From Promethearchaeota archaeon (GTDB lineage Archaea; Asgardarchaeota; Lokiarchaeia; Sigyniarchaeales; SOKP01): DNA of 27,654 bases. The stretch lies in contig JABCSY010000053.1 of the NCBI GenBank assembly GCA_018238625.1, positions 1-27,654 on the forward strand, read 5' to 3'. How positions within the stretch are numbered: the first letter of the stretch is position 1; each line of letters starts with the position of its first letter. The position numbers were made by a program, and so were the translations under genes. A model generated the notes under the pieces. That model was not told the origin of the DNA. It made no database searches and saw only the letters and a program-made list of their open reading frames with translations. Shown piece by piece: positions 13,882-27,654 of the stretch.

Positions 13882-15282
13882 ATGAAAACTTTTTGTTTAA
13901 CTATTGCCGGTTCAGACCCTACATGTGGCGCGGGAATTCAAGCAGATATTAGAACGTTTGATAGGTGTGGAGTACACCCTTTTTCTGTAATAACGGCTAT
14001 TACTTATCAAAGTGCTACGGAATTTTATGGATATCAATCTCTTTCAGACGATTTAAATAAACAGCTAGATGCTATTTTTACTTCTTATCCTATTAAGTAT
14101 GTTAAAATAGGGATGATTCCAGATGTCAAAGCGTTAGACATTATCGTAGATATAGTTAGAAAACACGATTTAATCGCTATTTTGGATCCTGTTTCGATCT
14201 CGAGCGCAGGTGGAAGACTCTCAAGCGAGGGATTCGAATTAGAAATAGAAAGAGGTTTGTTTCCGCACGTAAAAGTCCTTACACCAAACATTAATGAAGC
14301 CGGTTTTTATGCGAACCGAGATTTATTAAATAAAACTACAGAAAATATTGCTGAACTCAAGGAAGCAGCAATAATATTGGTAAAAAAGTTATATTCTGAT
14401 GAGCAGACATTGGATGCGGAGAAAGCAGTTGTTATTAAAAGTGCGGGAACTAAACAAGGAGAGATTTTCGATCTCGTATGTATCAGTAAAGGAATAGGTT
14501 CCAATGAAAATTATGAATTTACTTTATATCAAAAGTCAAAACTATTATTTAATGGAAATGTCCACGGAACGGGATGCGTTTTTTCTTCTGCTATAGCTGC
14601 TTTTCTTGCTAAAGGAAATCCCTTAGCTATGGCTATTGAAAAAGCAGAAAACTTTTTTGACGCTAAATTTCAGAAGTTTGTTGAATTACCCGATAAAGGT
14701 AAAGCAATAGATCTAACTATTTCAGAAGAAAGAGTGGAAGTTATAAATCAAATTAAGGAAATCTACAGTTTTATCTCTAGGTTGAAAAAGTTTAGCAAAT
14801 TAATTCCTGAAGTTAGAATGAATATATCAGGGGCCTTACCTAACGCTACTATAAAAGAGGATATCGCGGGTATTGAAGGTAGAATTACAATTGTTAATGG
14901 TTATCCCCAAGCTTCCGGAGAAATAAAGTTTGGAGTCTCAAATCATACCGCTCGATTAATTCTCTCGGCGAAAAAGTTCGATAATTCAATTAATTACGTA
15001 ATAAATCTTAAGTATGACCCAAATTGGATAGATTTAATTCAGCAAAACTCTGATTTAGAATTACAAGAGATTATTAGAGAAGATCAGCCAGAAAAGATTA
15101 AAAAACAAGAATTTTCAACTATGCAATGGTTAATTAAAGAAAGTATGGCTAATAAAGGTAAAATACCAGATATCATTTGGGATAAAGGAGCGATCGGTAA
15201 GGAGCCTATTATCAGACTTTTTGGTAAGAATTCCATTGATGTGATTAAGAAATTACAAAAAATCGTAGATTTGATTACTTAA
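13882..15282 (+). CDS. thiDN: Bifunctional HMP/HMP-P kinase (ThiD) - thiamine-phosphate synthase (ThiN) fusion
   Basis: ThiD: LTIAGSDPTCGAGIQAD, VKIGM, LTPNINEA, HGTGCVFSSAIAA. ThiN: LIPEVRMNI, GIEGRI, FGVSNHTAR, PDIIWDKGAIGKEP. Confidence 0.92.
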   Translation: MKTFCLTIAGSDPTCGAGIQADIRTFDRCGVHPFSVITAITYQSATEFYGYQSLSDDLNKQLDAIFTSYPIKYVKIGMIPDVKALDIIVDIVRKHDLIAILDPVSISSAGGRLSSEGFELEIERGLFPHVKVLTPNINEAGFYANRDLLNKTTENIAELKEAAIILVKKLYSDEQTLDAEKAVVIKSAGTKQGEIFDLVCISKGIGSNENYEFTLYQKSKLLFNGNVHGTGCVFSSAIAAFLAKGNPLAMAIEKAENFFDAKFQKFVELPDKGKAIDLTISEERVEVINQIKEIYSFISRLKKFSKLIPEVRMNISGALPNATIKEDIAGIEGRITIVNGYPQASGEIKFGVSNHTARLILSAKKFDNSINYVINLKYDPNWIDLIQQNSDLELQEIIREDQPEKIKKQEFSTMQWLIKESMANKGKIPDIIWDKGAIGKEPIIRLFGKNSIDVIKKLQKIVDLIT

Positions 15283-15380
15283 TATATTGATTCTTTATTT
15301 CTACTAAAAATATTCTCCAATATTTGGTTTGAATTAAGATTTTTAATGAAACTTATTTTTTTGCTTTTCAATATGATATA

Positions 15381-15435
15381 GAATTACCAGAGTGATTTAA
15401 ATAAGACTTTAAAATATGTAAGATGTATATTTAAC
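15381..15435 (+). promoter_or_regulatory. Conserved upstream element copy 1 (TATA-like boxes + inverted repeat)
   Basis: 48/55 nt identical to 17274-17328. Contains TTTAAATA and the inverted repeat AAATAT-gtaagatgt-ATATTT. Confidence 0.7.
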
Positions 15436-15474
15436 TTTAAAATTAAATTTGAATTTGAATTCAATGTGAATAAA

Positions 15475-17154
15475 ATGATGATACAGCAAAAAAAATCGAA
15501 ATTTTTTTTATTAACAATAAGTCTATCAGTACTTTTATTATTTGTAGGAGTAGGCGTTAATATCAATAGTTATGTCTTGGATAATAAATCATTAGACGAA
15601 GATGTTTTAACTCAACCTAAAGAATCGTGGACATATACTACCCGAATTCTTAGGCCAAATGAGGACGTATCGAATAATGGTTTTCAAAGTAGTCCAATAT
15701 TTAATAAAATTAATGAAGTTGTAACATACCCTAGTTCCGGTGGAGATAGTAGTTATATTATAGGCGATGTTACAACAGATAGTTGTGAAGTTAAAATGAG
15801 TACAACTTACCAGCTTGAAGGACAGAGTTTTACAAGCATTAAAATTTATGCTCGGGGAAGAAAAGGAGGTACTCCTGGAGATACAACTTTGAATGTAAAA
15901 TTTGACTGGAGATTAGAAGGGGGAAGCTTCTCAACACCCAAATCAGTTAATTTTGATGAAGATAGTTTCCACTGGCTTAGTACTATTTCATGGGATAATT
16001 TAGATTTATCTAAAAATGAATTAGATCATTTACAAATTAGAATACGCATTGGAGGAATTGATGAGATTGATAAAGAACAACATATATCGGTTGTATACGC
16101 TGAAATTACCGTTAAAAGCAACGAAGATCCGACTGTCAATGTAATCTCTCCAAACGGAGGCGAAATCGTTCAAGACACTGCTTTGATAAATTGGAGCTAT
16201 TCTGATCCTGAAGGTCAAACTCTTACTTATGAATTATCTTATAGCATAATCCCATCTGGGACGTTTCACACTATTGTTTCTGGGTTAGTAAATGTGAACA
16301 CCTACGAATGGGACTTAAGTGGATTTACTGAAAGGTGTGATAGTGTTAGAATTATGGTAGAAGCTTGGGATGGAAACGGGGGTTATGATTACGATCATAG
16401 CGATGATTATTTCGAAATATTTGTTAACCACGATCCCATCGTAAATCTAACCTCTCCAAATGGAGGTGAGGTTCTACAAGAGAGCTCGTTGATAACATGG
16501 GATTGCTCTGATACTGATGGAGATACATTAACATTTAATATATCTTATGATATTGCGGGTGCGGGATGGACGCCTATAGTTTCAGGATTAGTAGATGAAA
16601 CATCCTACGAATGGGATTTAAGCGGATTTCCTCAAAGATCTGATCAAGTTTTAGTTAAAATTGAAGTAGACGACGGATATGAGGGTTTTAATGAAGATGT
16701 TAGCGATAATTATTTCGAAATTTTTTTTAACCACGATCCTACAATAACCTTAACCTCTCCAAACGGAGGTGAAACTCTAAAAGGAAACTCAACGATAGCA
16801 TGGAATTGCTCTGATTTTGATGGGGATACGTTAACATTCAACATTTCGTACAATATCGCAGGGACTATATGGCAACCTATAGCATCTGGATTAGTGAATG
16901 TAAGTTCTTACGAATGGGATCTAGGTGGATTTGCTTTTATTTACGATCAAGTTAGAGTAAAAGTACAAGTACGCGATGAATATAATGGATACGCAGAGGA
17001 TGTTAGCGACAATCCATTTGTAATTAATGCGGCAATAGAAGAATTAGAAACGATACCTTCCTTTAACATATTCATTGTTGGAGCTAGTGGATGTATCGCG
17101 GGTATTTTTCTTTGTGCTAAGGGAACAAAAAAAAACGTAAGAAATTCACTTTAG
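15475..17154 (+). CDS. Cell-surface protein: signal peptide, beta-sandwich head, three ~101-aa SPNGGE Ig-like repeats, Loki-CTERM-like anchor
   Basis: Hydrophobic N-terminus; SPNGGE at 16147, 16453, 16756; C-terminal IPSF + hydrophobic stretch + basic tail. ATG 15475 is preferred over GTG 15466 because it aligns with the paralog's start (CAATG + 8 nt). Confidence 0.85.
   Translation: MMIQQKKSKFFLLTISLSVLLLFVGVGVNINSYVLDNKSLDEDVLTQPKESWTYTTRILRPNEDVSNNGFQSSPIFNKINEVVTYPSSGGDSSYIIGDVTTDSCEVKMSTTYQLEGQSFTSIKIYARGRKGGTPGDTTLNVKFDWRLEGGSFSTPKSVNFDEDSFHWLSTISWDNLDLSKNELDHLQIRIRIGGIDEIDKEQHISVVYAEITVKSNEDPTVNVISPNGGEIVQDTALINWSYSDPEGQTLTYELSYSIIPSGTFHTIVSGLVNVNTYEWDLSGFTERCDSVRIMVEAWDGNGGYDYDHSDDYFEIFVNHDPIVNLTSPNGGEVLQESSLITWDCSDTDGDTLTFNISYDIAGAGWTPIVSGLVDETSYEWDLSGFPQRSDQVLVKIEVDDGYEGFNEDVSDNYFEIFFNHDPTITLTSPNGGETLKGNSTIAWNCSDFDGDTLTFNISYNIAGTIWQPIASGLVNVSSYEWDLGGFAFIYDQVRVKVQVRDEYNGYAEDVSDNPFVINAAIEELETIPSFNIFIVGASGCIAGIFLCAKGTKKNVRNSL
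16120..17030 (+). repeat. Three intragenic ~303-bp tandem repeats (N.DP.V.L.SPNGGE...W..SD.DG.TLT...YEWDL.GF...D.SD.YF.I)
   Basis: Periods of 306 and 303 nt between SPNGGE codons; two further copies at about 18012-18615 in the next gene. Boundaries approximate. Confidence 0.9.
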
Positions 17155-17273
17155 CCTAAATATTTTTTATTTCTTTTTCATTTTAAAGAGGAAATCTGTA
17201 GAAAGCATTACTCTTTTAAATTATAACTAATAGATTTAACCTAAATTGCCTTGTGAAAATTCATCATGGCATT

Positions 17274-17328
17274 GAATTACCAGATCGATTTAAATAAGAC
17301 TTTTAAATATACAAAATGTATAGTTAAC
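17274..17328 (+). promoter_or_regulatory. Conserved upstream element copy 2
   Basis: GAATTACCAGATCGATTTAAATAAGACTTTTAAATATACAAAATGTATAGTTAAC; contains the palindrome TATACA-aaa-TGTATA. Confidence 0.7.
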
Positions 17329-17363
17329 AGAAATACTAATTATTTGAATTCAATGGGATCGAA

Positions 17364-19115
17364 TTGAAGTCACGACAAAAAAAGGCAATATTCGTTTTAT
17401 TAGCTGTAAGCTTTGGTTTTTTTTTTGGTTTAACATTTTTTATTAAAGGTGACTCAAACACTAGTAATCTCGTTTCGGAAAAAGAGAATTCAATTCAACC
17501 TGAAAATTCGTACACATATTCCACTCAAATTATTAGACCAGACGATGACCTAACAAATAGTGGTTTTACACTTGTACCAGGTGGTGGTTATTTATATACG
17601 AAAATAAATGATAATGTAAGTTCACCTGCGGCTGGAGGAGATAGTGAATATATTATTGGTGATCATGATCTAGATGATTGCGAGGTCGAGATGAGTTCTA
17701 TAACTTTAAATCCAGGTCAAGTTGTCACAGGAATAGAAATATATGCAAGGGGGCAAGTTGGAGGTGGTCCTGGAGAAGTTACTATTCGTACAGGTTTTAG
17801 ATGGAGAATTGGGACAGGAACCTATTCCTCATCTAACTCAGTTCAATTTGATGAAAGTAGTTTCTACTGGCTTAGTGCAAGTCCATGGCCGGATTTAGAA
17901 TTATCACAATCTGAATTAAATGATTTAAGGATTGAAATAAGTATTACAGGAATTGTAGGTGTAAAAACACAAGAAATTTCAGTAATGTATGTGGAACTTA
18001 CTATTAGAAGTAATGAAAACCCTAATGTTAATTTAACTTCTCCGAATGGAGGTGAAATTCTACAAGAAACTGCGAATATAACTTGGAATTATTCTGATCC
18101 TGAAGGTGATACCATAACATTTAACTTATTATATGACATTGCGGGGGCAGGGTGGACTCCAATAGTTTCTGGATTAGTAAATGAGACTTCTTACGAATGG
18201 GATCTGACGGGTTTTACTCAAAGATACGACCAAGTTAGGGTAAAAATAGAGGCGGACGATGGAAATGGGGGATACGATGAGGATATTAGCGATGATTATT
18301 TCGATATATTTGTTAACCATGATCCCGTAGTAAACTTAATATCTCCAAATGGGGGTGAGATTCTACAAGGTAATACATCAATAACATGGAATTTTTTTGA
18401 TGCTGACGATGATCTTTTATCATTTAATATTTCGTACAATATAGCTGGAACAGGATGGACCCTTATTGTTTCTGGATTAGTAAATAAGAGTTCATATCAA
18501 TGGGACTTAAGTAATTTCACCCAAAGATACGATCAAGTTTTAATCAAATTAGAAGTAAATGACGGGTATAATGGATATAGCGAGGATATTAGCGGAGACT
18601 ATTTTGTAATAAATATAATAGAGCAAAAGGGAGAGTTTGATCCTATTATTCTGATTTTGATCTTTGGAGCAAGCGTAGGAATTTCAGGTATTTTTATTGG
18701 AAATAATATTGTAAAAAGAAAAAGGAAGAAAAGCATTAAAAACAGAGATTCATCAATTCCATATAGGGTTAAACAAGTAGATAGTGTTGGTAGTAATCAT
18801 AAAAAGATTATAGTAGAAGCTGATCTTTTAATTAGAAGAACTAGCAATGGTAATAGTAAAGATTTAATTTCTAATCTGTTTTCTAAAAATTCTAACCTTC
18901 TAGATGAAGTAGTAGGGAAAGAGGGCTATGAAGTAGTAAAAATATTAGGAAAATTCCGCATTACAACATTATCTGATGATTTTTGGGATAAAGTAGAGCA
19001 ATTTGAGTGGGAAAATAATGAGAAAGAAGAATTCATAAAAGATATGCTTGGATTGCCCCCTGATTGTCGTGAACAGTTTATTGATGATATGTTAAGGCAA
19101 TCAAAGAGGCGATAA
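17364..19115 (+). CDS. Single-pass surface protein paralogous to the upstream gene: same head domain, two SPNGGE repeats, TM helix and ~130-aa cytoplasmic tail
   Basis: SPNGGE at 18039 and 18342; TM PIILILIFGASVGISGIFIG followed by KRKRKK; acidic helical end TTLSDDFWDKVEQFEW...EFIKDMLGLPPDCREQFIDDML. TTG start. Confidence 0.85.
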   Translation: MKSRQKKAIFVLLAVSFGFFFGLTFFIKGDSNTSNLVSEKENSIQPENSYTYSTQIIRPDDDLTNSGFTLVPGGGYLYTKINDNVSSPAAGGDSEYIIGDHDLDDCEVEMSSITLNPGQVVTGIEIYARGQVGGGPGEVTIRTGFRWRIGTGTYSSSNSVQFDESSFYWLSASPWPDLELSQSELNDLRIEISITGIVGVKTQEISVMYVELTIRSNENPNVNLTSPNGGEILQETANITWNYSDPEGDTITFNLLYDIAGAGWTPIVSGLVNETSYEWDLTGFTQRYDQVRVKIEADDGNGGYDEDISDDYFDIFVNHDPVVNLISPNGGEILQGNTSITWNFFDADDDLLSFNISYNIAGTGWTLIVSGLVNKSSYQWDLSNFTQRYDQVLIKLEVNDGYNGYSEDISGDYFVINIIEQKGEFDPIILILIFGASVGISGIFIGNNIVKRKRKKSIKNRDSSIPYRVKQVDSVGSNHKKIIVEADLLIRRTSNGNSKDLISNLFSKNSNLLDEVVGKEGYEVVKILGKFRITTLSDDFWDKVEQFEWENNEKEEFIKDMLGLPPDCREQFIDDMLRQSKRR

Positions 19116-19119
19116 GAGG

Positions 19120-19773
19120 TTGAACTCAATAGCGTCTACTGAATTCGAAAACGAAGAAGAAATCGTATTTAATGCGGTTCAAGACTATTTAAACGAGAAT
19201 AAAATAGTTGAAAAAAACAATTTAGTTAATTATATCAAATCTTATTTCTCTAAAATTGCTATCAACATCAATGAAGAGGGAATTGTTAAAAATTTGGAAT
19301 CTTTAATTGAAAAGAAGAGAATTGTTGAAGGTTCTAAGTTAACTAGGAATACAGTATTACAAAATGAAAAAAGAAAGAAAATTTATGATTGTATTGTCAA
19401 CAATCCCGGAATGTACTTTAATAAAATATTAAAAAACATGAATCTCAGCAACCACGTTGTCTATTGGCACGTAAACATCCTATTAAAATTTAATTTAATA
19501 AAAACAACTGAAATTCAGAACCGCGACATATATTTTAATTCTGATTTTGACGTTAAAGAAGCTAAAACGCAATACATTTTGAGAAAAAAAGGTAGTAAAA
19601 AAATACTCGAATATCTTAAAGAAAACACAATTGGTATAAATAAAAACCAACTAGCTTCAGAATTAAAAATGCACGCTAAGACAATTAAAAAATACGTCGA
19701 CCTTCTTGAAGAATATGGATTTATTGAAAAGAAAAAGTTTTCTCCTAAAGAAATTTTATATTTTTTAAAATGA
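19120..19773 (+). CDS. Winged helix-turn-helix transcriptional regulator with tandem wHTH domains
   Basis: NEKRKKIYDCIVNNPGMYFNKILKNMNLSNHVVYWHVNILLKFNLI and KKILEYLKEN..GINKNQLASELKMHAKTIKKYVDLLEEYGFI. Starts 4 nt after the previous stop. Confidence 0.88.
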   Translation: MNSIASTEFENEEEIVFNAVQDYLNENKIVEKNNLVNYIKSYFSKIAININEEGIVKNLESLIEKKRIVEGSKLTRNTVLQNEKRKKIYDCIVNNPGMYFNKILKNMNLSNHVVYWHVNILLKFNLIKTTEIQNRDIYFNSDFDVKEAKTQYILRKKGSKKILEYLKENTIGINKNQLASELKMHAKTIKKYVDLLEEYGFIEKKKFSPKEILYFLK

Positions 19774-19806
19774 AATCTATTAATAAATAAGTAATTTCTG
19801 ATAATT

Positions 19807-21126
19807 TTATAATATCTTTTTAGATGCTTTCTTATCTAAGGCATCTTTTAAAATCTTAATCGCGCAAAATTCGCCGCACATACTGCATACATCATCGTCA
19901 TCGTCAACATTTCCATTTCTAAAATGAATCTCGCGAGATAATTCTGGATCGATCGATTGTTTTATCATTCCTTCCCAATCTAGATTTTTACGGGCTATAT
20001 CCATTTTGTAATCCCAATCTGATGCCCTTTTACCATATTTCGCAATATTTACGGCATGTGCTGCGATTTTCGAAGCAATAACCCCTCTTTTTACTTCTTC
20101 CTTATTGGGTAGTGCCAAATGCTCGGAGGGAGTAACGTAACAGAGATAATCTGCTCCGGCCATACCCGCCATTACACCTCCTATCGCACTTACGATGTGG
20201 TCGTAACCCGGAGCTATATCAGTTACTAATGGTCCTAAAACATAAAAAGGTGCGTTATTGCATAATGATTTCATAATTTTTATGTTGCGCTCTATTTCAT
20301 TAGCAGGAATGTGTCCAGGCCCTTCCACCATTACTTGGACATTCTGTGACCAAGCGCGTTTTACTAATTTTGATATCTCAACTAACTCTTGAATTTGGGC
20401 GTAATCTGTGGAATCAAATATACTACCCGGCCTCATCCCATCTCCAAGTGAGAGCGTGAAATCGTGTTCTTTCGCCATTTCTAATAAGTAGTCGTAATTA
20501 CTATTAAAAGGGTTTTCTAAATCGTTCTCAAGTATCCATGCGGCTAAAAAAGTTCCTCCGCGAGAGACCACTCCCATAGTTCTTGGATGGTCTTTTAGGT
20601 AGTTTACTATCTCTTTCGTAACTCCAACATGAATTGTAAAAAAGTCCACGCCTTCTTTAGCCTGTTCTTCTACTACGTTAAAGAGGTCATCTTCGTCAAA
20701 GTTTATAATAGCTCCTTTTTTTTCCAACGCTCTTAACGCGGATTGGTAAATAGGAACCGTTCCTAATGGGACTTTAACTTCTTTTAAAATTTGTTTTCGA
20801 ATGTTTTTCACGTCGTCCTCGGTTATTCCAGTGCTTAAATCCATGATGGTATCTGCCCCGTATTTTACAGCGATCTTGGCTTTTTCTAATTCTTCGTTAA
20901 TATCACATACTCGTTTGCTGGAGCCTAAGTTAGCGTTAACTTTTACTAGCAAACCTTCACCTATGCCAATAGGTTCGATATCGCGATTATTGGATTTTGG
21001 AACGATAATACGGCCTTTTGCGATTCCTTTTCGAAGGAATTCTACATCTACTTGTTCTTTTTTCGCAACTAATTCCATTTCTTTGGTGATTTTACCATCT
21101 CGAGCGATTTTCATTAATGTGGGCAA
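19807..21126 (-). CDS. thiC: Phosphomethylpyrimidine synthase ThiC
   Basis: KVNANLGSS, GADTIMDLSTG, GTVPIYQ, VSRGG, SLGDGMRPG, MVEGPGH, APGYDHI, CYVTPSEHL, C-terminal CSMCGEFC Fe-S motif. Confidence 0.97.
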   Translation of the reverse strand: MPTLMKIARDGKITKEMELVAKKEQVDVEFLRKGIAKGRIIVPKSNNRDIEPIGIGEGLLVKVNANLGSSKRVCDINEELEKAKIAVKYGADTIMDLSTGITEDDVKNIRKQILKEVKVPLGTVPIYQSALRALEKKGAIINFDEDDLFNVVEEQAKEGVDFFTIHVGVTKEIVNYLKDHPRTMGVVSRGGTFLAAWILENDLENPFNSNYDYLLEMAKEHDFTLSLGDGMRPGSIFDSTDYAQIQELVEISKLVKRAWSQNVQVMVEGPGHIPANEIERNIKIMKSLCNNAPFYVLGPLVTDIAPGYDHIVSAIGGVMAGMAGADYLCYVTPSEHLALPNKEEVKRGVIASKIAAHAVNIAKYGKRASDWDYKMDIARKNLDWEGMIKQSIDPELSREIHFRNGNVDDDDDVCSMCGEFCAIKILKDALDKKASKKIL

Positions 21127-22306: not shown

Positions 22307-22507
22307 TTTAAAACAAAAACTTTAAAGATATTTATCAATAATTTTAGAATCTACTACTATAAATTGTTATTTTTGTATAATTTACTTATCTATTCTTGAT
22401 ACAATTTTAATTTTTTTTATCAGAATAAATTTAAATATTAGGAAAAAGATTTTCATCATTAGTTATTTAACTTAGTTTCTTAAAAATGAAATAAGGCGAA
22501 ATTTAAA

Positions 22508-25500
22508 ATGAATCATTTTAATTTAAAAAAAAAAGAAAAATGCATAATAATTTCTCTGTTGTACTTTTGTTCAATCTTTTCAAATGTTTTTATTAATAAC
22601 GGAACTTCAGATTTATTTTTGGCAACGCAAGAAAATGTATTTGGAAACAACGATGATTTGATCGAATTAAAGGTCACTATCTCCGATATTTTAATAGAAG
22701 ATAAGGAATCACCAACTGGAGAATGTTTTCAACGACTTAGCATAGACGGAGGCGGAAATCTTGATCAAACGGGAAGCCCTAGTCTACCCTTTAAAATTGT
22801 AAAAATGCTCCTTCCATATGGCAAAGATATGGCAGATATCGAAATCATTACTGGAGAAACACATATTTTAGAAGGATCGTATAAAATAGAACCCGCACAA
22901 GAACAAGTCCATATTAGCTCGAACGAGGTAACCGAATTTAAATTGGATAATTCAATTTACAATTCAATTAGCCCTTTTCCTAATAAACAATATTCAATTG
23001 TAGGTGTATATGAACTTAGGGGATATAGGATTTTAGTCCTAAATCTATACCCTGTGAGTTATATCCCAAAAACTGGAAAAGTATCTTATTTTAAAGATAT
23101 AATGGTACGAGTTAGCCTTACAAATCGTCCTAATACGAATTCTCTTTTCAGAGATTTAAAAGTAGATGAAAAACGAGTTGTCAATACCGTTGACAATCCA
23201 GAGTTGGTGGATGTTTATAGAGGAAAAAATACTCAATTAATTTCTCTTGGAGCAAGTTTAGATTTGCCTCCTGCATCTTATGATTACGTCATTATTACAA
23301 ACGAAGCTTTAAATAATTCTAATGGAGCTTATACTTTTCAAGATCTTAGGAATAGTAAAAATGCTGCAGGCATACAAACTACAGTTGTTACTATTGAATA
23401 TATTTACGCTAATTATCTTGGTGCCGATAACTCAGAAAAAATTAGAAATTTTATTATCGATGCCTATCAAACTTGGGGTGTAGAATATGTTTTATTAGGA
23501 GGTGATGGAGATGAAGTCAATATAGGTGGAGAGAGTGGAGATTCTATAATTCCATCTAGGGGCTTTTATGCTACGGCTTATGGAGAAGTAGAATTCAACG
23601 TTACATCCGATTTATATTATGCTGGGTTAGATGGAAATTGGAATACTGACGGAGATAATATGTGGGCTGAACCAGGCGAAGACGATCTATATGCAGAGGT
23701 GTATGTTGGTAGAGCTCCTGTGGATTCTGAAGATGAACTATCTAATTTTGTATACAAAACTTTAGCTCACGAGACAGATACTCATCCTTACCTATCTGAT
23801 GTATTGATGGTTGGTGAAGATCTTCATTGGTATGTGTGGGGCGGTGATTACAAAGACGAAGTAAAAGACGGTTCTGATGCACAAGGCTATACAACTGAAG
23901 GGTTTCCATTAGGATATTTTGTTGATACGCTTTACGACCGCGAATTAGACCCGGCAAGATGGGATAAAAACGATCTTATCCCTTTAATTAACGATGGAAT
24001 TCATATAATTAATCACCTTGGCCACTGCAATGTTGAATATAGCATGAAAATGGAAAATTATGATGCAGATGCGCTTACAAATGATCACTTTTTCTTTGGT
24101 TACAGCCAAGGATGCTACAATGGTGCGTTTGATAATAAGGGTCCTTGGGGGGAAATACACGAAAACGATTCTATTGTAGAACACTTTGTAACTACACCTC
24201 ACGGAGCGTTTGCTTTTATTGCTAATAGCAGGTTCGGATGGGGTGACCCTTACGGAACTAATGGAGCTTCTCAGTATTACGATCGCCAATTTTTTGATGC
24301 TATATTTTCAGAAGGCATTGAAGAAATAGGAAAAGCAAATCAAGACTCAAAGGAAGACAACATAGGATTTCTCTCTCAAGAAGCAATGAGATGGGTTTAT
24401 TATCAACTAAATCTCTTCGGAGATCCAACAGCAACGATTCCACCTCAACCTAATGATTTTACACCTTCACTTACTGATGGAAGCCTTTCGCCCACTTCTG
24501 GAAACCAAACAACTCTATTCACATACAACGTGACTTATACTGATGCTGATAATAACCCTCCAATTTATATAAATGTGTTAATAAATGAAACATCTTACCC
24601 TATGGAAAAACATGATATAATGGATGAAGATTACACTGATGGCTGTATTTATCAATATCTTACTTATTTACAACCTGGAAATTACAATTATTCATTTGAA
24701 TGCAAAGATTATAAATTTTCTAATAATACTGGAGTAACTAATGGCCCTTCTGTTTCAGAAACCCCAAATGTAGATTCACCTATTTTAAGTAATGGGCAAG
24801 TCTCTCCTTCAACGGGTATTAAGCATTGGGATACATTTAGATTCTCAGTAGTTTATTCGGATGCCGATAATAATTTGCCGGAATATGTTAATATTATACT
24901 AAATTCGAAAACATATACTATGGTACAACTAGATTATTTAGATTCAAATTATATGGATGGATGCGTATATACTTTCAGCACAACTATACATCAAGATGGT
25001 AATCAAAATTATTCGTTCGAGTGTTCTGATGGCGATTTTACTCATACTATTGGTCCCTTTAGTGGCCCTTCTGTTTACGAAATATTGAATTATACTATGG
25101 TCCCTGATTATGAGTATAATTGGATTGACGCATCTGGTGGAACAGAATTATTACTAAATGACGATGGATATTCAACACAATCTTTACCTTTTGACTTTCA
25201 ATTTTACAACAGGACATTTTCAACCATATATTTAAGTGCAAATGGATATTTAAGCTTCACCGACTCAACGCCTTCTGGATGTTCGCCTATCCCTTTACCT
25301 TCGGCAGACTCTAGGTATTCTTACTTTTTAGCTCCATTTATGGCTGACTTATACACCGAATATGCGGGTGGTAATGGTACTATTTATGTTCAATCATTCG
25401 GTAATTATTGGGTTGCTGAATGGCAGAATATCGCTTATTTGGGAGGGGGGCAAATTGCTGGTTCTTTTGAAGTAATTCTATATGATACTGGAGAAATCAT

Positions 25501-27654
25501 CTTTAATTACGATTATCTCGACTCTATTAATATTTATAGCGGGTATACTTGTGGATTAAATTTAGGTGAAGACACTAGATTTTTTAATTCGTATCAAGAC
25601 TTGGATACAAGTACCGATAATTTCTCGTTATATTTTTACGCAATGACTAATGATTTTGCTCCAGAATTATCTTTAGAATCTGTCATACCGACAAGTGGAT
25701 ACCAAAATACTCTGTTCAATTTCAATGTTACTTATACCGACCAAGACAACAACCCACCGGTTCAAATGGATGTTATTATTAATGGGACAACTTACCCTAT
25801 GGAAAAGGAAAACCCATCTGATGATAATTACACAAATGGTTGTCTATACCAATATTTGACTTACTTACAACCAGCAACTCATAATTATACTTATTACTTT
25901 AATTGCTACGATGGAATATTTACAAATACAACCGCTATTTATTCTAATATAAAAGTAGAAGGATCGAATAGCTTTAGCCCTAGTTTGTCAAATGAACAGG
26001 TCGTTCCAAATCCAGGCTATAGACAAACAACAATTTTCTCATTTATGGTTACTTATACTGATCCTGATAATAATGCACCTGAGTCTATAGAAATTACTAT
26101 TAATTCAACGACATCTACTATGTTAAAGCAAGATTATATGGACTCTAATTTCATGGATGGATGTGTGTATATATATAATACACCATTAAATGATACGGGT
26201 ATCTATTCGTATAATTTTAGTTGTTCAGACGGGATTTTTACAGCCAGCGCTGGACCTTTTGTGGGACCAATAGTAGAAAAAGGTCCTTTATTTGATGGTA
26301 TGTATATAGATCATACATTCAATCTTATGGGTTCAAATACAGGTCCTTCTCAATTCGCCTATTCTTATCTTTCAGGTGAGTACTATCGTGCTGAATGGGA
26401 TTTAAGTATATCGGGCTATAATTATTACTCTTATTGGGATGTAGATCCTCAGACAAGAATTATGTCTAATATGGGTGGATATACTCTTTTATATGAAGGA
26501 CATCATACTCCAGCATGGATAGTTAGAGATTTATCTTTAGGTGATACCGTTCCAATTGCTGTTATTGGAGGAGAGGAGCATATCTTCAACATCACAAGTG
26601 AATTTATTTATGATCTACCTGGTTTTGGACTAATAGATGTTTGGGAGCTAGAAGATTTAACTCTTCCTGGGGGAGTTGCTTGGTACGAGAAAAGTACTGG
26701 AATTCTCTTGAGTGGAACATTTTACTATGCTGGAGGAGCGTATTGGTATACTTTTGATTTCGTAGATACTAATGTAGAATTTACTTATATTACGTTCGAT
26801 CATGAATTAAAAGTTTCCTTAGAAGTTCCAACTAATCCAAAAATTAATCAGACTTACATCATTAATGCAACAGTCACCAATAATGGTAAAAATGATGAAA
26901 CTAATGTTGATCTGTTTTTATATCTTGATGACATACTTGTAGATTCAATTACTATTTCAAGTTTAACTGTTGGTGCGAGTGAAACAATTAATTATACGTG
27001 GACTCCAACCGAATATGAAACCTACAATTTCACTGCTTATGCTCCACCTGTCTTTGATGAAGGTTTCATAAATAATAATATCGTAACTGAGTTAATACCA
27101 ATTGTGGATTCTAAATTATTCGAAGGTATGTATATTGAGCATATTTACACTGAATCTGGTAGTAGTCACTCTTCAAAGTTTTCATATTCTTATTATTCAG
27201 GTAGTCTATTTTTTGAAACTTGGGATGTTATGGGATTTTCTTTTGGATGGTATGTTGATTCTCAGACAAGAATTGTTTCAGGTGGGTCCGTTTTTGGCGA
27301 TGGCACTCATACTCCGGCATGGATTTTTATCGATGTATCTTTAGGAGACGAAATTTTAATTGCTGTTGATGGTGAAGGTGATCATCTTTTCAGCGTAGCA
27401 GGCGAATTAATCTATGATCTACCCGGTTTTGGACTGGTAGATGTGTGGGTTTTAGAAGATTTAACTCTTCCTGGTGGAGTTGCTTTGTACGAGAAAAGTA
27501 CTGGAATTCTCTTGAGTGGAACATTTTACTATGCTGGAGGATCGTATTGGTATACGTTTGATTTCGTAGATACTAATGTAGATTTTACTTATATTACCTT
27601 CAATCATGAATTAAGAGTTTCCTTAGAAATTCCATCCCTTCCAGAAATTGATCA
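22508..27654 (+). CDS. Large secreted peptidase C25 (gingipain-like) with propeptide and multiple C-terminal repeat domains (>1715 aa, truncated by window edge)
   Basis: Manual translation from ATG 22508; frame checked at several points and no stop seen. Signal-like N-terminus; propeptide GSPSLPFKIVKMLLPYG; C25 motifs YDYVIIT, IRNFIIDAY, YVLLGGD, SDLYYA, VYVGRAP, INHLGHC (His codon 24023), SQGCYNGAFD (Cys codon 24113), NLFGDP. Followed by Ig-like, NIDO-like and CARDB-like modules. Confidence 0.9.
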   Translation, partial: MNHFNLKKKEKCIIISLLYFCSIFSNVFINNGTSDLFLATQENVFGNNDDLIELKVTISDILIEDKESPTGECFQRLSIDGGGNLDQTGSPSLPFKIVKMLLPYGKDMADIEIITGETHILEGSYKIEPAQEQVHISSNEVTEFKLDNSIYNSISPFPNKQYSIVGVYELRGYRILVLNLYPVSYIPKTGKVSYFKDIMVRVSLTNRPNTNSLFRDLKVDEKRVVNTVDNPELVDVYRGKNTQLISLGASLDLPPASYDYVIITNEALNNSNGAYTFQDLRNSKNAAGIQTTVVTIEYIYANYLGADNSEKIRNFIIDAYQTWGVEYVLLGGDGDEVNIGGESGDSIIPSRGFYATAYGEVEFNVTSDLYYAGLDGNWNTDGDNMWAEPGEDDLYAEVYVGRAPVDSEDELSNFVYKTLAHETDTHPYLSDVLMVGEDLHWYVWGGDYKDEVKDGSDAQGYTTEGFPLGYFVDTLYDRELDPARWDKNDLIPLINDGIHIINHLGHCNVEYSMKMENYDADALTNDHFFFGYSQGCYNGAFDNKGPWGEIHENDSIVEHFVTTPHGAFAFIANSRFGWGDPYGTNGASQYYDRQFFDAIFSEGIEEIGKANQDSKEDNIGFLSQEAMRWVYYQLNLFGDPTATIPPQPNDFTPSLTDGSLSPTSGNQTTLFTYNVTYTDADNNPPIYINVLINETSYPMEKHDIMDEDYTDGCIYQYLTYLQPGNYNYSFECKDYKFSNNTGVTNGPSVSETPNVDSPILSNGQVSPSTGIKHWDTFRFSVVYSDADNNLPEYVNIILNSKTYTMVQLDYLDSNYMDGCVYTFSTTIHQDGNQNYSFECSDGDFTHTIGPFSGPSVYEILNYTMVPDYEYNWIDASGGTELLLNDDGYSTQSLPFDFQFYNRTFSTIYLSANGYLSFTDSTPSGCSPIPLPSADSRYSYFLAPFMADLYTEYAGGNGTIYVQSFGNYWVAEWQNIAYLGGGQIAGSFEVILYDTGEIIFNYDYLDSINIYSGYTCGLNLGEDTRFFNSYQDLDTSTDNFSLYFYAMTNDFAPELSLESVIPTSGYQNTLFNFNVTYTDQDNNPPVQMDVIINGTTYPMEKENPSDDNYTNGCLYQYLTYLQPATHNYTYYFNCYDGIFTNTTAIYSNIKVEGSNSFSPSLSNEQVVPNPGYRQTTIFSFMVTYTDPDNNAPESIEITINSTTSTMLKQDYMDSNFMDGCVYIYNTPLNDTGIYSYNFSCSDGIFTASAGPFVGPIVEKGPLFDGMYIDHTFNLMGSNTGPSQFAYSYLSGEYYRAEWDLSISGYNYYSYWDVDPQTRIMSNMGGYTLLYEGHHTPAWIVRDLSLGDTVPIAVIGGEEHIFNITSEFIYDLPGFGLIDVWELEDLTLPGGVAWYEKSTGILLSGTFYYAGGAYWYTFDFVDTNVEFTYITFDHELKVSLEVPTNPKINQTYIINATVTNNGKNDETNVDLFLYLDDILVDSITISSLTVGASETINYTWTPTEYETYNFTAYAPPVFDEGFINNNIVTELIPIVDSKLFEGMYIEHIYTESGSSHSSKFSYSYYSGSLFFETWDVMGFSFGWYVDSQTRIVSGGSVFGDGTHTPAWIFIDVSLGDEILIAVDGEGDHLFSVAGELIYDLPGFGLVDVWVLEDLTLPGGVALYEKSTGILLSGTFYYAGGSYWYTFDFVDTNVDFTYITFNHELRVSLEIPSLPEID
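24450..26280 (+). repeat. Four VTY(T/S)DxDNNxP Ig-like repeats arranged (A,B)-NIDO-like-(A',B')
   Basis: Motif near 24530, 24850, 25727 and 26048. A/A' share YPMEK...YT.GC.YQYLTYLQP; B/B' share DY.DSN.MDGCVY. Boundaries approximate. Confidence 0.8.
26283..27654 (+). repeat. ~804-bp-period intragenic repeat (novel beta-rich domain + CARDB-like domain), second copy truncated
   Basis: LF(D/E)GMYI.H...HTPAWI...YEKSTGILLSGTFYYAGG occurs twice; a 55-nt exact match at 26683-26737 and 27487-27541. Confidence 0.9.

Follow-up and report, generated by a model that had tools for sequence, protein, structure and literature searches.

Genes of the cassette

The window, which is the whole 27,654-nucleotide stretch of DNA analysed here, is contig C159 of a Lokiarchaeal (Promethearchaeota) genome of 4.29 Mb. 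Between the convergent genes thiDN (13882-15282) and thiC (19807-21126) it contains a cassette of three genes, which encode two paralogous surface proteins, g1 and g2, and a regulator built of winged-helix modules. The cytoplasmic tail of g2 ends in a small helical domain, and genes encoding this domain almost always adjoin genes of related regulators in Lokiarchaeal genomes. The cassette may represent one member of a two-protein module for transmembrane signalling, in which the tail docks the regulator. Its features are listed below by their positions in the window; the second and third winged-helix modules of the regulator are designated wH2 and wH3, and Ig-like stands for immunoglobulin-like.

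15283..19806, no strand assigned: whole cassette, which lies between the stop codons of thiDN and thiC
15349..19586, no strand assigned: present/absent segment of 4,238 bp; metagenome contigs join 15348 to 19587
15384..15403, + strand: promoter core of g1, with TTACCA at 15384-15389, a 6-nucleotide spacer and the TATA box TTTAAATA at 15396-15403, within the island 15381-15435
15466..17154, + strand: g1, tail-less paralog of 562 residues, with a signal or anchor, a head, three Ig-like SPNGGE repeats, a transmembrane helix and an 11-residue basic end
17277..17296, + strand: promoter core of g2, with TTACCA at 17277-17282, a 6-nucleotide spacer and TTTAAATA at 17289-17296, within the island 17274-17328
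17364..19115, + strand: g2, tailed paralog and putative receptor of 583 residues, with a head (residues ~41-215), two Ig-like repeats, a transmembrane helix (residues ~425-447) and a cytoplasmic tail
18912..19112, + strand: conserved acidic helical tail domain (g2 residues ~517-583), with the motifs ITTLS.DFW, F.WE and EFIKDML.LPP..R; predicted docking site
19120..19773, + strand: regulator of 217 residues with a TTG start, comprising a predicted acidic winged-helix-like docking domain (residues 1-78), wH2 (HTH_HVO_0163_N, residues 82-147) and wH3 (HTH_24, residues 160-203)

The proteins g1 and g2 are 54% identical across 420 residues of their alignment (E-value 2e-150), which bears out the first-pass annotation of this DNA, made from the sequence alone, in describing them as paralogs with a common head and SPNGGE repeats. 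Both begin with an N-terminal signal or anchor, followed by a head of ~175 residues and by Ig-like repeats of the SPNGGE type, three in g1 and two in g2. Alignment with g2 indicates that the real start of g1 is likely the ATG at 15475. A repeat period of 303 bp has been detected by Tandem Repeats Finder, and the Pfam family Big_7 is matched by g1 with 33 bits (cut-off 24.1 bits) and by g2 with 23.3 bits, just below the cut-off. A g2 allele in one metagenome run lacks one Ig-like repeat of 303 bp, or 101 codons (18279-18581). The C-terminus of g1 consists of a transmembrane helix and the sequence KGTKKNVRNSL. The first-pass annotation had called this end a sorting-type anchor; however, g1 has no NCBIfam family match at E ≤ 0.01 and hence none to a curated sorting-signal model such as PGF-CTERM and its relatives. 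An archaeosortase-type sorting signal has therefore been discarded, and the end of g1 is taken as a plain C-terminal membrane anchor. Past its transmembrane helix, g2 continues into a tail of roughly 135 residues.

The head domain, encoded in g2 by positions 17484-18008, is rare. It is present in 6 of 135 genomes of the archaeon's own family, and four of the matches are within giant surface open reading frames. The giant frames containing the head measure 14,552 residues in genome G249 (contig C47, locus L081) and 1,538-2,790 residues in three other genomes. Look-alikes of the head proposed by a protein language model (score 0.94) are uncharacterised proteins, mostly viral, and constitute a lead only. 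A true ortholog of g2, 48% identical, is held only by genome G223 (locus L040), where a regulator gene follows as well. A search of metagenome contigs with g2 for further orthologs of the cassette yielded no confirmed relative. Neither g1 nor g2 matches the PADLOC models of defence systems, and a reading of the cassette as an anti-phage defence has been rejected, with the regulator matching only the generic helix-turn-helix (HTH) parts of the CasR, Csa3, and CARF models of PADLOC.

The stop codon of g2 ends at 19115 and the TTG start codon of the regulator is at 19120, leaving a gap of 4 nucleotides. An AlphaFold2 model of the regulator (predicted local distance difference test score, pLDDT, 93.5) contains three winged-helix-like modules. 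The first module, formed by residues 1-78, is acidic, and modules wH2 and wH3 are basic and display a helix-turn-helix with a beta wing. The isoelectric point of the protein is 9.3, and the median for the regulators of the family is 9.56. The first-pass annotation had placed a basic regulator of several winged HTH modules, with an additional N-terminal domain, 4 nucleotides after the second gene, and both the distance and the architecture are as described, the first module being the additional domain. In Pfam, the regulator scores 37.3 bits with HTH_24 (cut-off 21.9) and 36.6 bits with HTH_HVO_0163_N (cut-off 31), and its sub-threshold matches in NCBIfam include Csa3-HTH, Sta1, Lrs14, ArsR/SmtB, and SdpR. 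Its homologs carry only names such as "hypothetical" or "predicted regulator". Neither g2 nor the regulator contains a sigma-70 or anti-sigma family (zf-HC2, RsgI_N, or similar) in Pfam or NCBIfam.

The tail domain and its linkage to the regulator

The last ~65 residues of the g2 tail form a compact helical fold (AlphaFold2 pLDDT 83, above 90 at residues 31-83), and the tail domains of the family are acidic, with a median isoelectric point of 4.77; a compact acidic helical end had been expected from the sequence. No relative of the domain is present in Pfam, NCBIfam, or PADLOC. Comparison of the tail profile with the sequences of the Protein Data Bank (PDB) gave a best E-value of 0.12, and a Foldseek search with the tail model gave a best E-value of 3.5, neither of which provides a usable relative. 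Searches of the literature on archaeal and Asgard regulators and signalling returned no account of the tail domain or of its pairing with the regulator, with the limit that the supplements of PMC10936438 and PMC10269533 might list the genes. Judged by its sequence, the tail domain is a small, previously undescribed family without a known relative.

At E ≤ 0.001, the tail profile matches 293 of 1.84 billion representative proteins, almost all of them Lokiarchaeal. The domain nearly always forms the very C-terminus of these proteins, which range from 58 to 1906 residues in length. It is encoded in 153 of 400 genomes of the phylum and in 121 of 134 genomes of the archaeon's own family. The genome analysed here has exactly three significant matches among 17,329 open reading frames, namely g2, a 459-residue protein on contig C76, and a 262-residue protein on contig C50. 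The ectodomains above the tail include NosD/beta-helix folds, SBBP, LVIVD, PQQ, and WD40 propellers, Laminin_G/ConA-like domains, a sialidase-like carbohydrate-binding module, GH9 with fn3, and Big_7. In four loci (L049, L053, L057, and L076), a cysteine-rich, zinc-ribbon-like stretch with the pattern C..H...CP.CK.KYC..C...CWVC is inserted between the transmembrane helix and the tail domain. Proteins of a WD40/PQQ-propeller subfamily (L055, L067, and L078) are 611-620 residues long and have a divergent tail domain, with no regulator within the fetched locus. A free-standing protein of 74 residues (L008, G000:C57, 2440-2664) consists of a weak tail-like domain alone and adjoins a TPR protein and a PAS histidine kinase.

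Genes for tail domains are consistently accompanied by genes for regulators. Each of the three tail genes of the genome adjoins one of the three closest regulator paralogs. A set of 40 type-I loci was defined by open frames of at least 418 residues among 150 listed tail matches; 210 further matches were unlisted, and six lower-ranked matches with frames of this length lie outside the set. Among the matches listed, 37 of the 40 loci, with 39 of their 42 tail genes, encode the regulator directly downstream and on the strand of the tail gene, and all 27 loci of the C50-type subfamily, whose members have 266-270 residues, encode it directly upstream. In five genomes with complete lists of matches, 44 of 51 tail matches adjoin a regulator, and the remaining seven include two at contig ends and four mini-genes of 85-98 residues. 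In the same five genomes, 44 of 48 regulator matches with the N-terminal domain are beside a tail gene, versus 1 of 46 partial matches. A single genome has as many as 18 tail matches and 25 regulator matches, full or partial.

Tail and regulator also occur in single polypeptides. Four open reading frames of genome G153 contain both in one frame, and one of them (L106) encodes a 1107-residue protein composed of a beta-helix ectodomain, a transmembrane helix, the tail, and a full regulator. In P0179, a polytopic membrane part is fused to tail and regulator. At least five natural single-chain fusions of membrane protein, tail, and regulator have been identified. The first-pass annotation had proposed that matches to a profile of the tail would be consistently followed by this family of regulators, and the adjacency counts and the fusions agree with it.

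The arrangement of the window, with a tail-less paralog ahead of the tailed one, recurs as well. Of the 44 tail genes examined, 31 have the gene of a tail-less paralog directly upstream. The second triad of the genome, on contig C76, has an acidic ectodomain unrelated to those of g1 and g2. The recurrence of the triad with an unrelated ectodomain argues for a functional role of the tail-less paralog in the system.

The most widely conserved pair (L002, G000:C50, 3645-7552) consists of a 223-residue regulator and the 262-residue membrane protein, which has two N-terminal transmembrane helices, the tail domain, and a C-terminal ubiquitin-like (Ubl) domain. Two free Ubl genes and an E1-like gene surround the pair. 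A free Ubl gene is convergent to the gene of the membrane protein in most of the 27 C50-type loci of other genomes. The genome also encodes regulators without a tail that are fused directly to membrane helices (on contigs C136, 419 residues, and C195, 249 residues), and other regulator paralogs (on contigs C125, C189, and C194) adjoin polytopic membrane proteins. Therefore, the wider regulator family is linked to membranes by other routes too. At three loci (L004, G000:C194, 2850-5333; L005; L006), the neighbours of the regulators are one protein with seven transmembrane helices and two with six, and the seven-helix neighbour has repeated EILEEL..L.EEEQ helices at its cytoplasmic end.

A candidate receptor-regulator signalling module

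A complex of the regulator with residues 501-583 of g2 has been modelled from alignments supplied by the user for each protein. The interaction prediction score from aligned errors (ipSAE) was 0.54, 0.73, and 0.72 in three runs (median 0.72), versus 0.00 for the best of three controls, so that the modelling check suggested for tail and regulator was passed. In the calibration of the score, 116 of 157 solved complexes and 2 of 215 mismatched pairs attain the ipSAE mark. The runs share at least 38% of contacts, and the partner pLDDT is at least 59. In the model, FRITTLS of the tail forms a strand pair with KRIVEGSKL (residues 66-74) of the regulator, and the tail helices pack on the helices of the N-terminal domain and on residues 110-120 of wH2, among them the invariant Trp116. 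Through this interface, the tail is predicted to bind the regulator.

The promoters of the window provide a candidate target of the regulator. Islands 15381-15435 and 17274-17328 are identical in 48 of 55 positions and the flanking upstream DNA is far less alike, so that the upstream element that g1 and g2 had been proposed to share is real. Each island contains TTACCA, a 6-nucleotide spacer, and the consensus TATA box TTTAAATA. The combination TTACCA-N6-TATA is present in both window promoters and in 18-19 of 29 promoters of tail-less paralogs from triads, and the 7-mer TTACCAT occurs in 15 of 30 upstream regions where 1.2 are expected; however, the TTACCA-bearing triad loci are orthologous, and the counts are hence not independent. 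When relaxed, the pattern has just 41 hits on both strands of the 4.29-Mb genome. Therefore, the motif is not a general form of promoter. In the C76 triad, the upstream regions of the two paralogs align poorly and only the tail-less promoter has the motif. Both genes of the window carry it because their duplication took in the promoter. A perfect 10-bp palindrome, TTGAATTCAA, is located at 15455-15464 and 17344-17353, just upstream of the starts of g1 and g2, in a second conserved patch of their upstream regions. A scan of 15250-19800 for inverted repeats returned none at the settings used.

These results favour, with a probability of about 0.6, the interpretation of the cassette as one member of a Lokiarchaeal two-protein signalling module in which the tail docks the regulator and a signal at the ectodomain alters the hold. 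Protein g2 would be a receptor that crosses the membrane once and combines a variable outer domain with a conserved acidic helical cytoplasmic end of ~65 residues. Its tail would dock the co-translated regulator by pairing the strand ITTLS with the strand IVEGSKL and by placing its helices on the wH2 helix that bears Trp116, and the docking would retain this basic DNA-binding protein at the membrane. The hold would be altered by a change in the ectodomain, which may be ligand binding, oligomerisation, or cleavage, and the regulator would then reach or leave its targets. Both TTACCA-N6-TATA promoters of the window, those of g1 and g2, are likely among the targets, which would create a feedback loop. 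Protein g1, with the same outer part and unable to hold the regulator, would most likely serve as a co-receptor or a competing decoy.

Several observations weigh against this interpretation. One of the three modelling runs is weaker (ipSAE 0.54, partner pLDDT 59), and the calibration of the score is only rough for user-supplied alignments. The modelled interface shows no significant enrichment of conserved residues (p 0.23 and 0.43), and mirror-tree correlations between the tail and the individual domains of the regulator (r 0.64, 0.60, and 0.55) differ too little for the contact domain to be assigned. The linkage counts come from closely related genomes and are therefore not independent. The contrast between regulator matches with and without the N-terminal domain carries a bias, since tail-adjacent copies were used to build the regulator profile. 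The three exceptions among the 40 loci all belong to the WD40/PQQ-propeller subfamily and encode a tail with no regulator nearby, and short free-standing tail proteins exist, including the mini-genes of 85-98 residues in genomes G158 and G161. Most upstream regions of tailed genes lack TTACCA, and TACCAG is beside the TATA box in just 3 of 29. The best whole-chain Foldseek matches of the regulator are non-regulatory arrays of tandem winged helices from RPC34, SelB, ESCRT-II, and ScpB. Because fused forms exist, permanent tethering is tolerated, and these forms fit activity at the membrane at least as well as sequestration and release.

It is possible, although unlikely, that the regulator is active while it is docked, in the manner of ToxR and CadC: it would activate the TTACCA-TATA promoters from the membrane, and the signal would change the clustering of the receptors without release. 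The natural single chains of receptor, tail, and regulator are consistent with this, as are the tail-less membrane-fused relatives on contigs C136 and C195 and the position of the motif just upstream of the TATA box, which is typical of sites of archaeal activators. By contrast, the model sets the tail on the wH2 helix (residues 110-120), whose counterpart in ArsR-type domains contacts DNA, and the acidity of the tail against the basic winged helices suggests competition with DNA; neither point is decisive. An adjacency without contact is improbable. Regulators often adjoin the genes that they control, the recurrence of the promoter motif requires no protein contact, and three members of one tail subfamily and several mini-proteins have no regulator. 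The regulator would then control the surface genes without touching the tail, which would serve another function, for example cytoskeletal or membrane anchoring. However, the linkage tracks the tail domain and not the ectodomain, and it holds across unrelated ectodomains and membrane topologies. The repeated in-frame fusions, the gaps of 4 nucleotides or gene overlaps, and the outcome of the complex modelling also argue for a contact.

The array of three winged-helix modules might alternatively be a scaffold similar to ESCRT-II or UFL1/DDRGK1, connecting surface proteins to a ubiquitin-like or sorting machinery. Foldseek matches to ESCRT-II Vps22/36 (3cuq_A, 1u5t_A, and 2zme), RPC34, and UFL1-DDRGK1 (E-values ~1e-4 to 7e-4) point in this direction, and in the most conserved pair of the family, the membrane partner bears a Ubl domain and is encoded among Ubl and E1-like genes. 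Such an adaptor function is nevertheless a long shot. The TM-scores of the 3cuq, 1u5t, and 2zme matches are 0.23-0.31, with root-mean-square deviations of 13-15 Å, and reflect the tandem winged-helix layout alone. Membership in ESCRT-II (Vps22/25/36) has been rejected on these scores and on the lack of an EAP30 or Vps25 match of the regulator in Pfam. Modules wH2 and wH3 are basic and score above the Pfam cut-offs for DNA-binding HTH families, and the fused relatives belong to the HVO_0163/HTH_24 family of regulators.

Among known systems, the most economical reading of the cassette by analogy would be a split, non-covalent version of archaeal membrane-tethered regulators, similar to anti-sigma/sigma or SdpI/SdpR pairs. 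To our knowledge, archaea have no sigma factors, and, unlike in anti-sigma/sigma pairs, the partner here is a triple winged-helix protein. The RsgI-SigI system of Clostridium thermocellum (PMC10328401, PMC12203970) is reported likewise to have several paralogous pairs per genome, each with a single-pass receptor whose variable, carbohydrate-type outer sensor is joined to a small conserved cytoplasmic domain that holds the cognate co-transcribed transcription protein. The topology is inverted relative to RsgI: in g2, the sensor is N-terminal and outside, and the docking domain is C-terminal and inside. In contrast to anti-sigma systems, the tail has no similarity to anti-sigma domains and no known proteolytic cascade.

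SdpI of Bacillus subtilis reportedly sequesters SdpR at the membrane. The pair (PMC2910880) is described as a membrane protein and an adjacently encoded ArsR-type winged-helix autorepressor, an arrangement that resembles the cassette. The match of wH2 to the SdpR family is 23.9 bits, far below the model cut-off of 100 bits. Unlike the window system, SdpI is polytopic and lacks such a tail domain, and the regulator described here has three winged-helix modules.

One-component transmembrane transcription regulators (TTRs) such as ToxR, CadC, and TcpP also combine an outer domain, one transmembrane helix, and cytoplasmic winged-helix DNA-binding domains, according to a census (PMC10269533) in whose text the strings "Asgard" and "Lokiarch" do not occur. 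The fused relatives on C136 and C195, L106, and P0179 resemble TTRs, and those of C136 and L106 are single polypeptides, as TTRs are. Unlike them, g2 and the regulator of the window are separate open reading frames divided by a stop codon and the 4-nucleotide gap, and the DNA-binding part follows the membrane helix on its C-terminal side. ArnR and ArnR1 of Sulfolobus acidocaldarius (PMC6396743) are reported as membrane-bound archaeal transcription factors for genes of surface structures and provide a precedent; unlike the window system, they are one-component, with the HTH N-terminal, transmembrane helices C-terminal, and no separate receptor or tail domain. The split pair is read as related by descent to fused archaeal membrane-tethered winged-helix regulators, which are members of the TTR class. 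At somewhat less than even odds, the modules could constitute an expanded receptor system specific to Lokiarchaeia, with swappable ectodomains, a new docking domain, a dedicated triple winged-helix factor, and a tail-less paralog in most cassettes. Such a system would have arisen separately from the two-component and sigma/anti-sigma systems of bacteria.

The means by which Asgard archaea perceive their environment and syntrophic partners are largely obscure, and little archaeal signalling from the membrane to transcription has been worked out. The cassette offers a compact system with defined parts: a putative receptor with swappable ectodomains, several of them of carbohydrate-binding or glycosidase types, a new predicted docking domain, its cognate DNA-binding protein, a candidate operator, and a tail-less paralog. 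It yields predictions for purified parts, which concern the interface residues, the promoter motif, and the competition between tail and DNA. The family of fused receptors with DNA-binding tails, linked to the split form, provides a natural series for distinguishing action at the membrane from release. If the proposed mechanism is correct, it would be a non-covalent pathway from receptor to transcription factor in the prokaryotes closest to eukaryotes.

Strain variation of the cassette and a neighbouring gene

The first-pass annotation had likened the cassette to a module inserted between thiDN and thiC, and comparison with relatives confirms it. The cassette is absent from 13 of 19 congeneric loci, among them the four closest, where a convergent thiC follows thiDN at a distance of no more than ~100 bp. 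Contigs from three of four metagenome runs join 15348 directly to 19587, with only 27-40 nucleotides of matching sequence on one side of the junction, and the depth of the cassette is below that of its flanks. The cassette-less form in the metagenomes retains the final 187 bp of the regulator gene. Alignment of the cassette boundaries with the empty sites of relatives revealed no clear target duplication or ends of a mobile element. The rare head, the empty thiDN-thiC sites, and the variable metagenome contigs together indicate that the cassette is a recent, strain-variable member of an old family of modules. Beyond thiC, a very large open reading frame for a secreted or surface protein (22490-27652, more than 1,721 residues, N-terminal transmembrane helix) runs off the end of the window.

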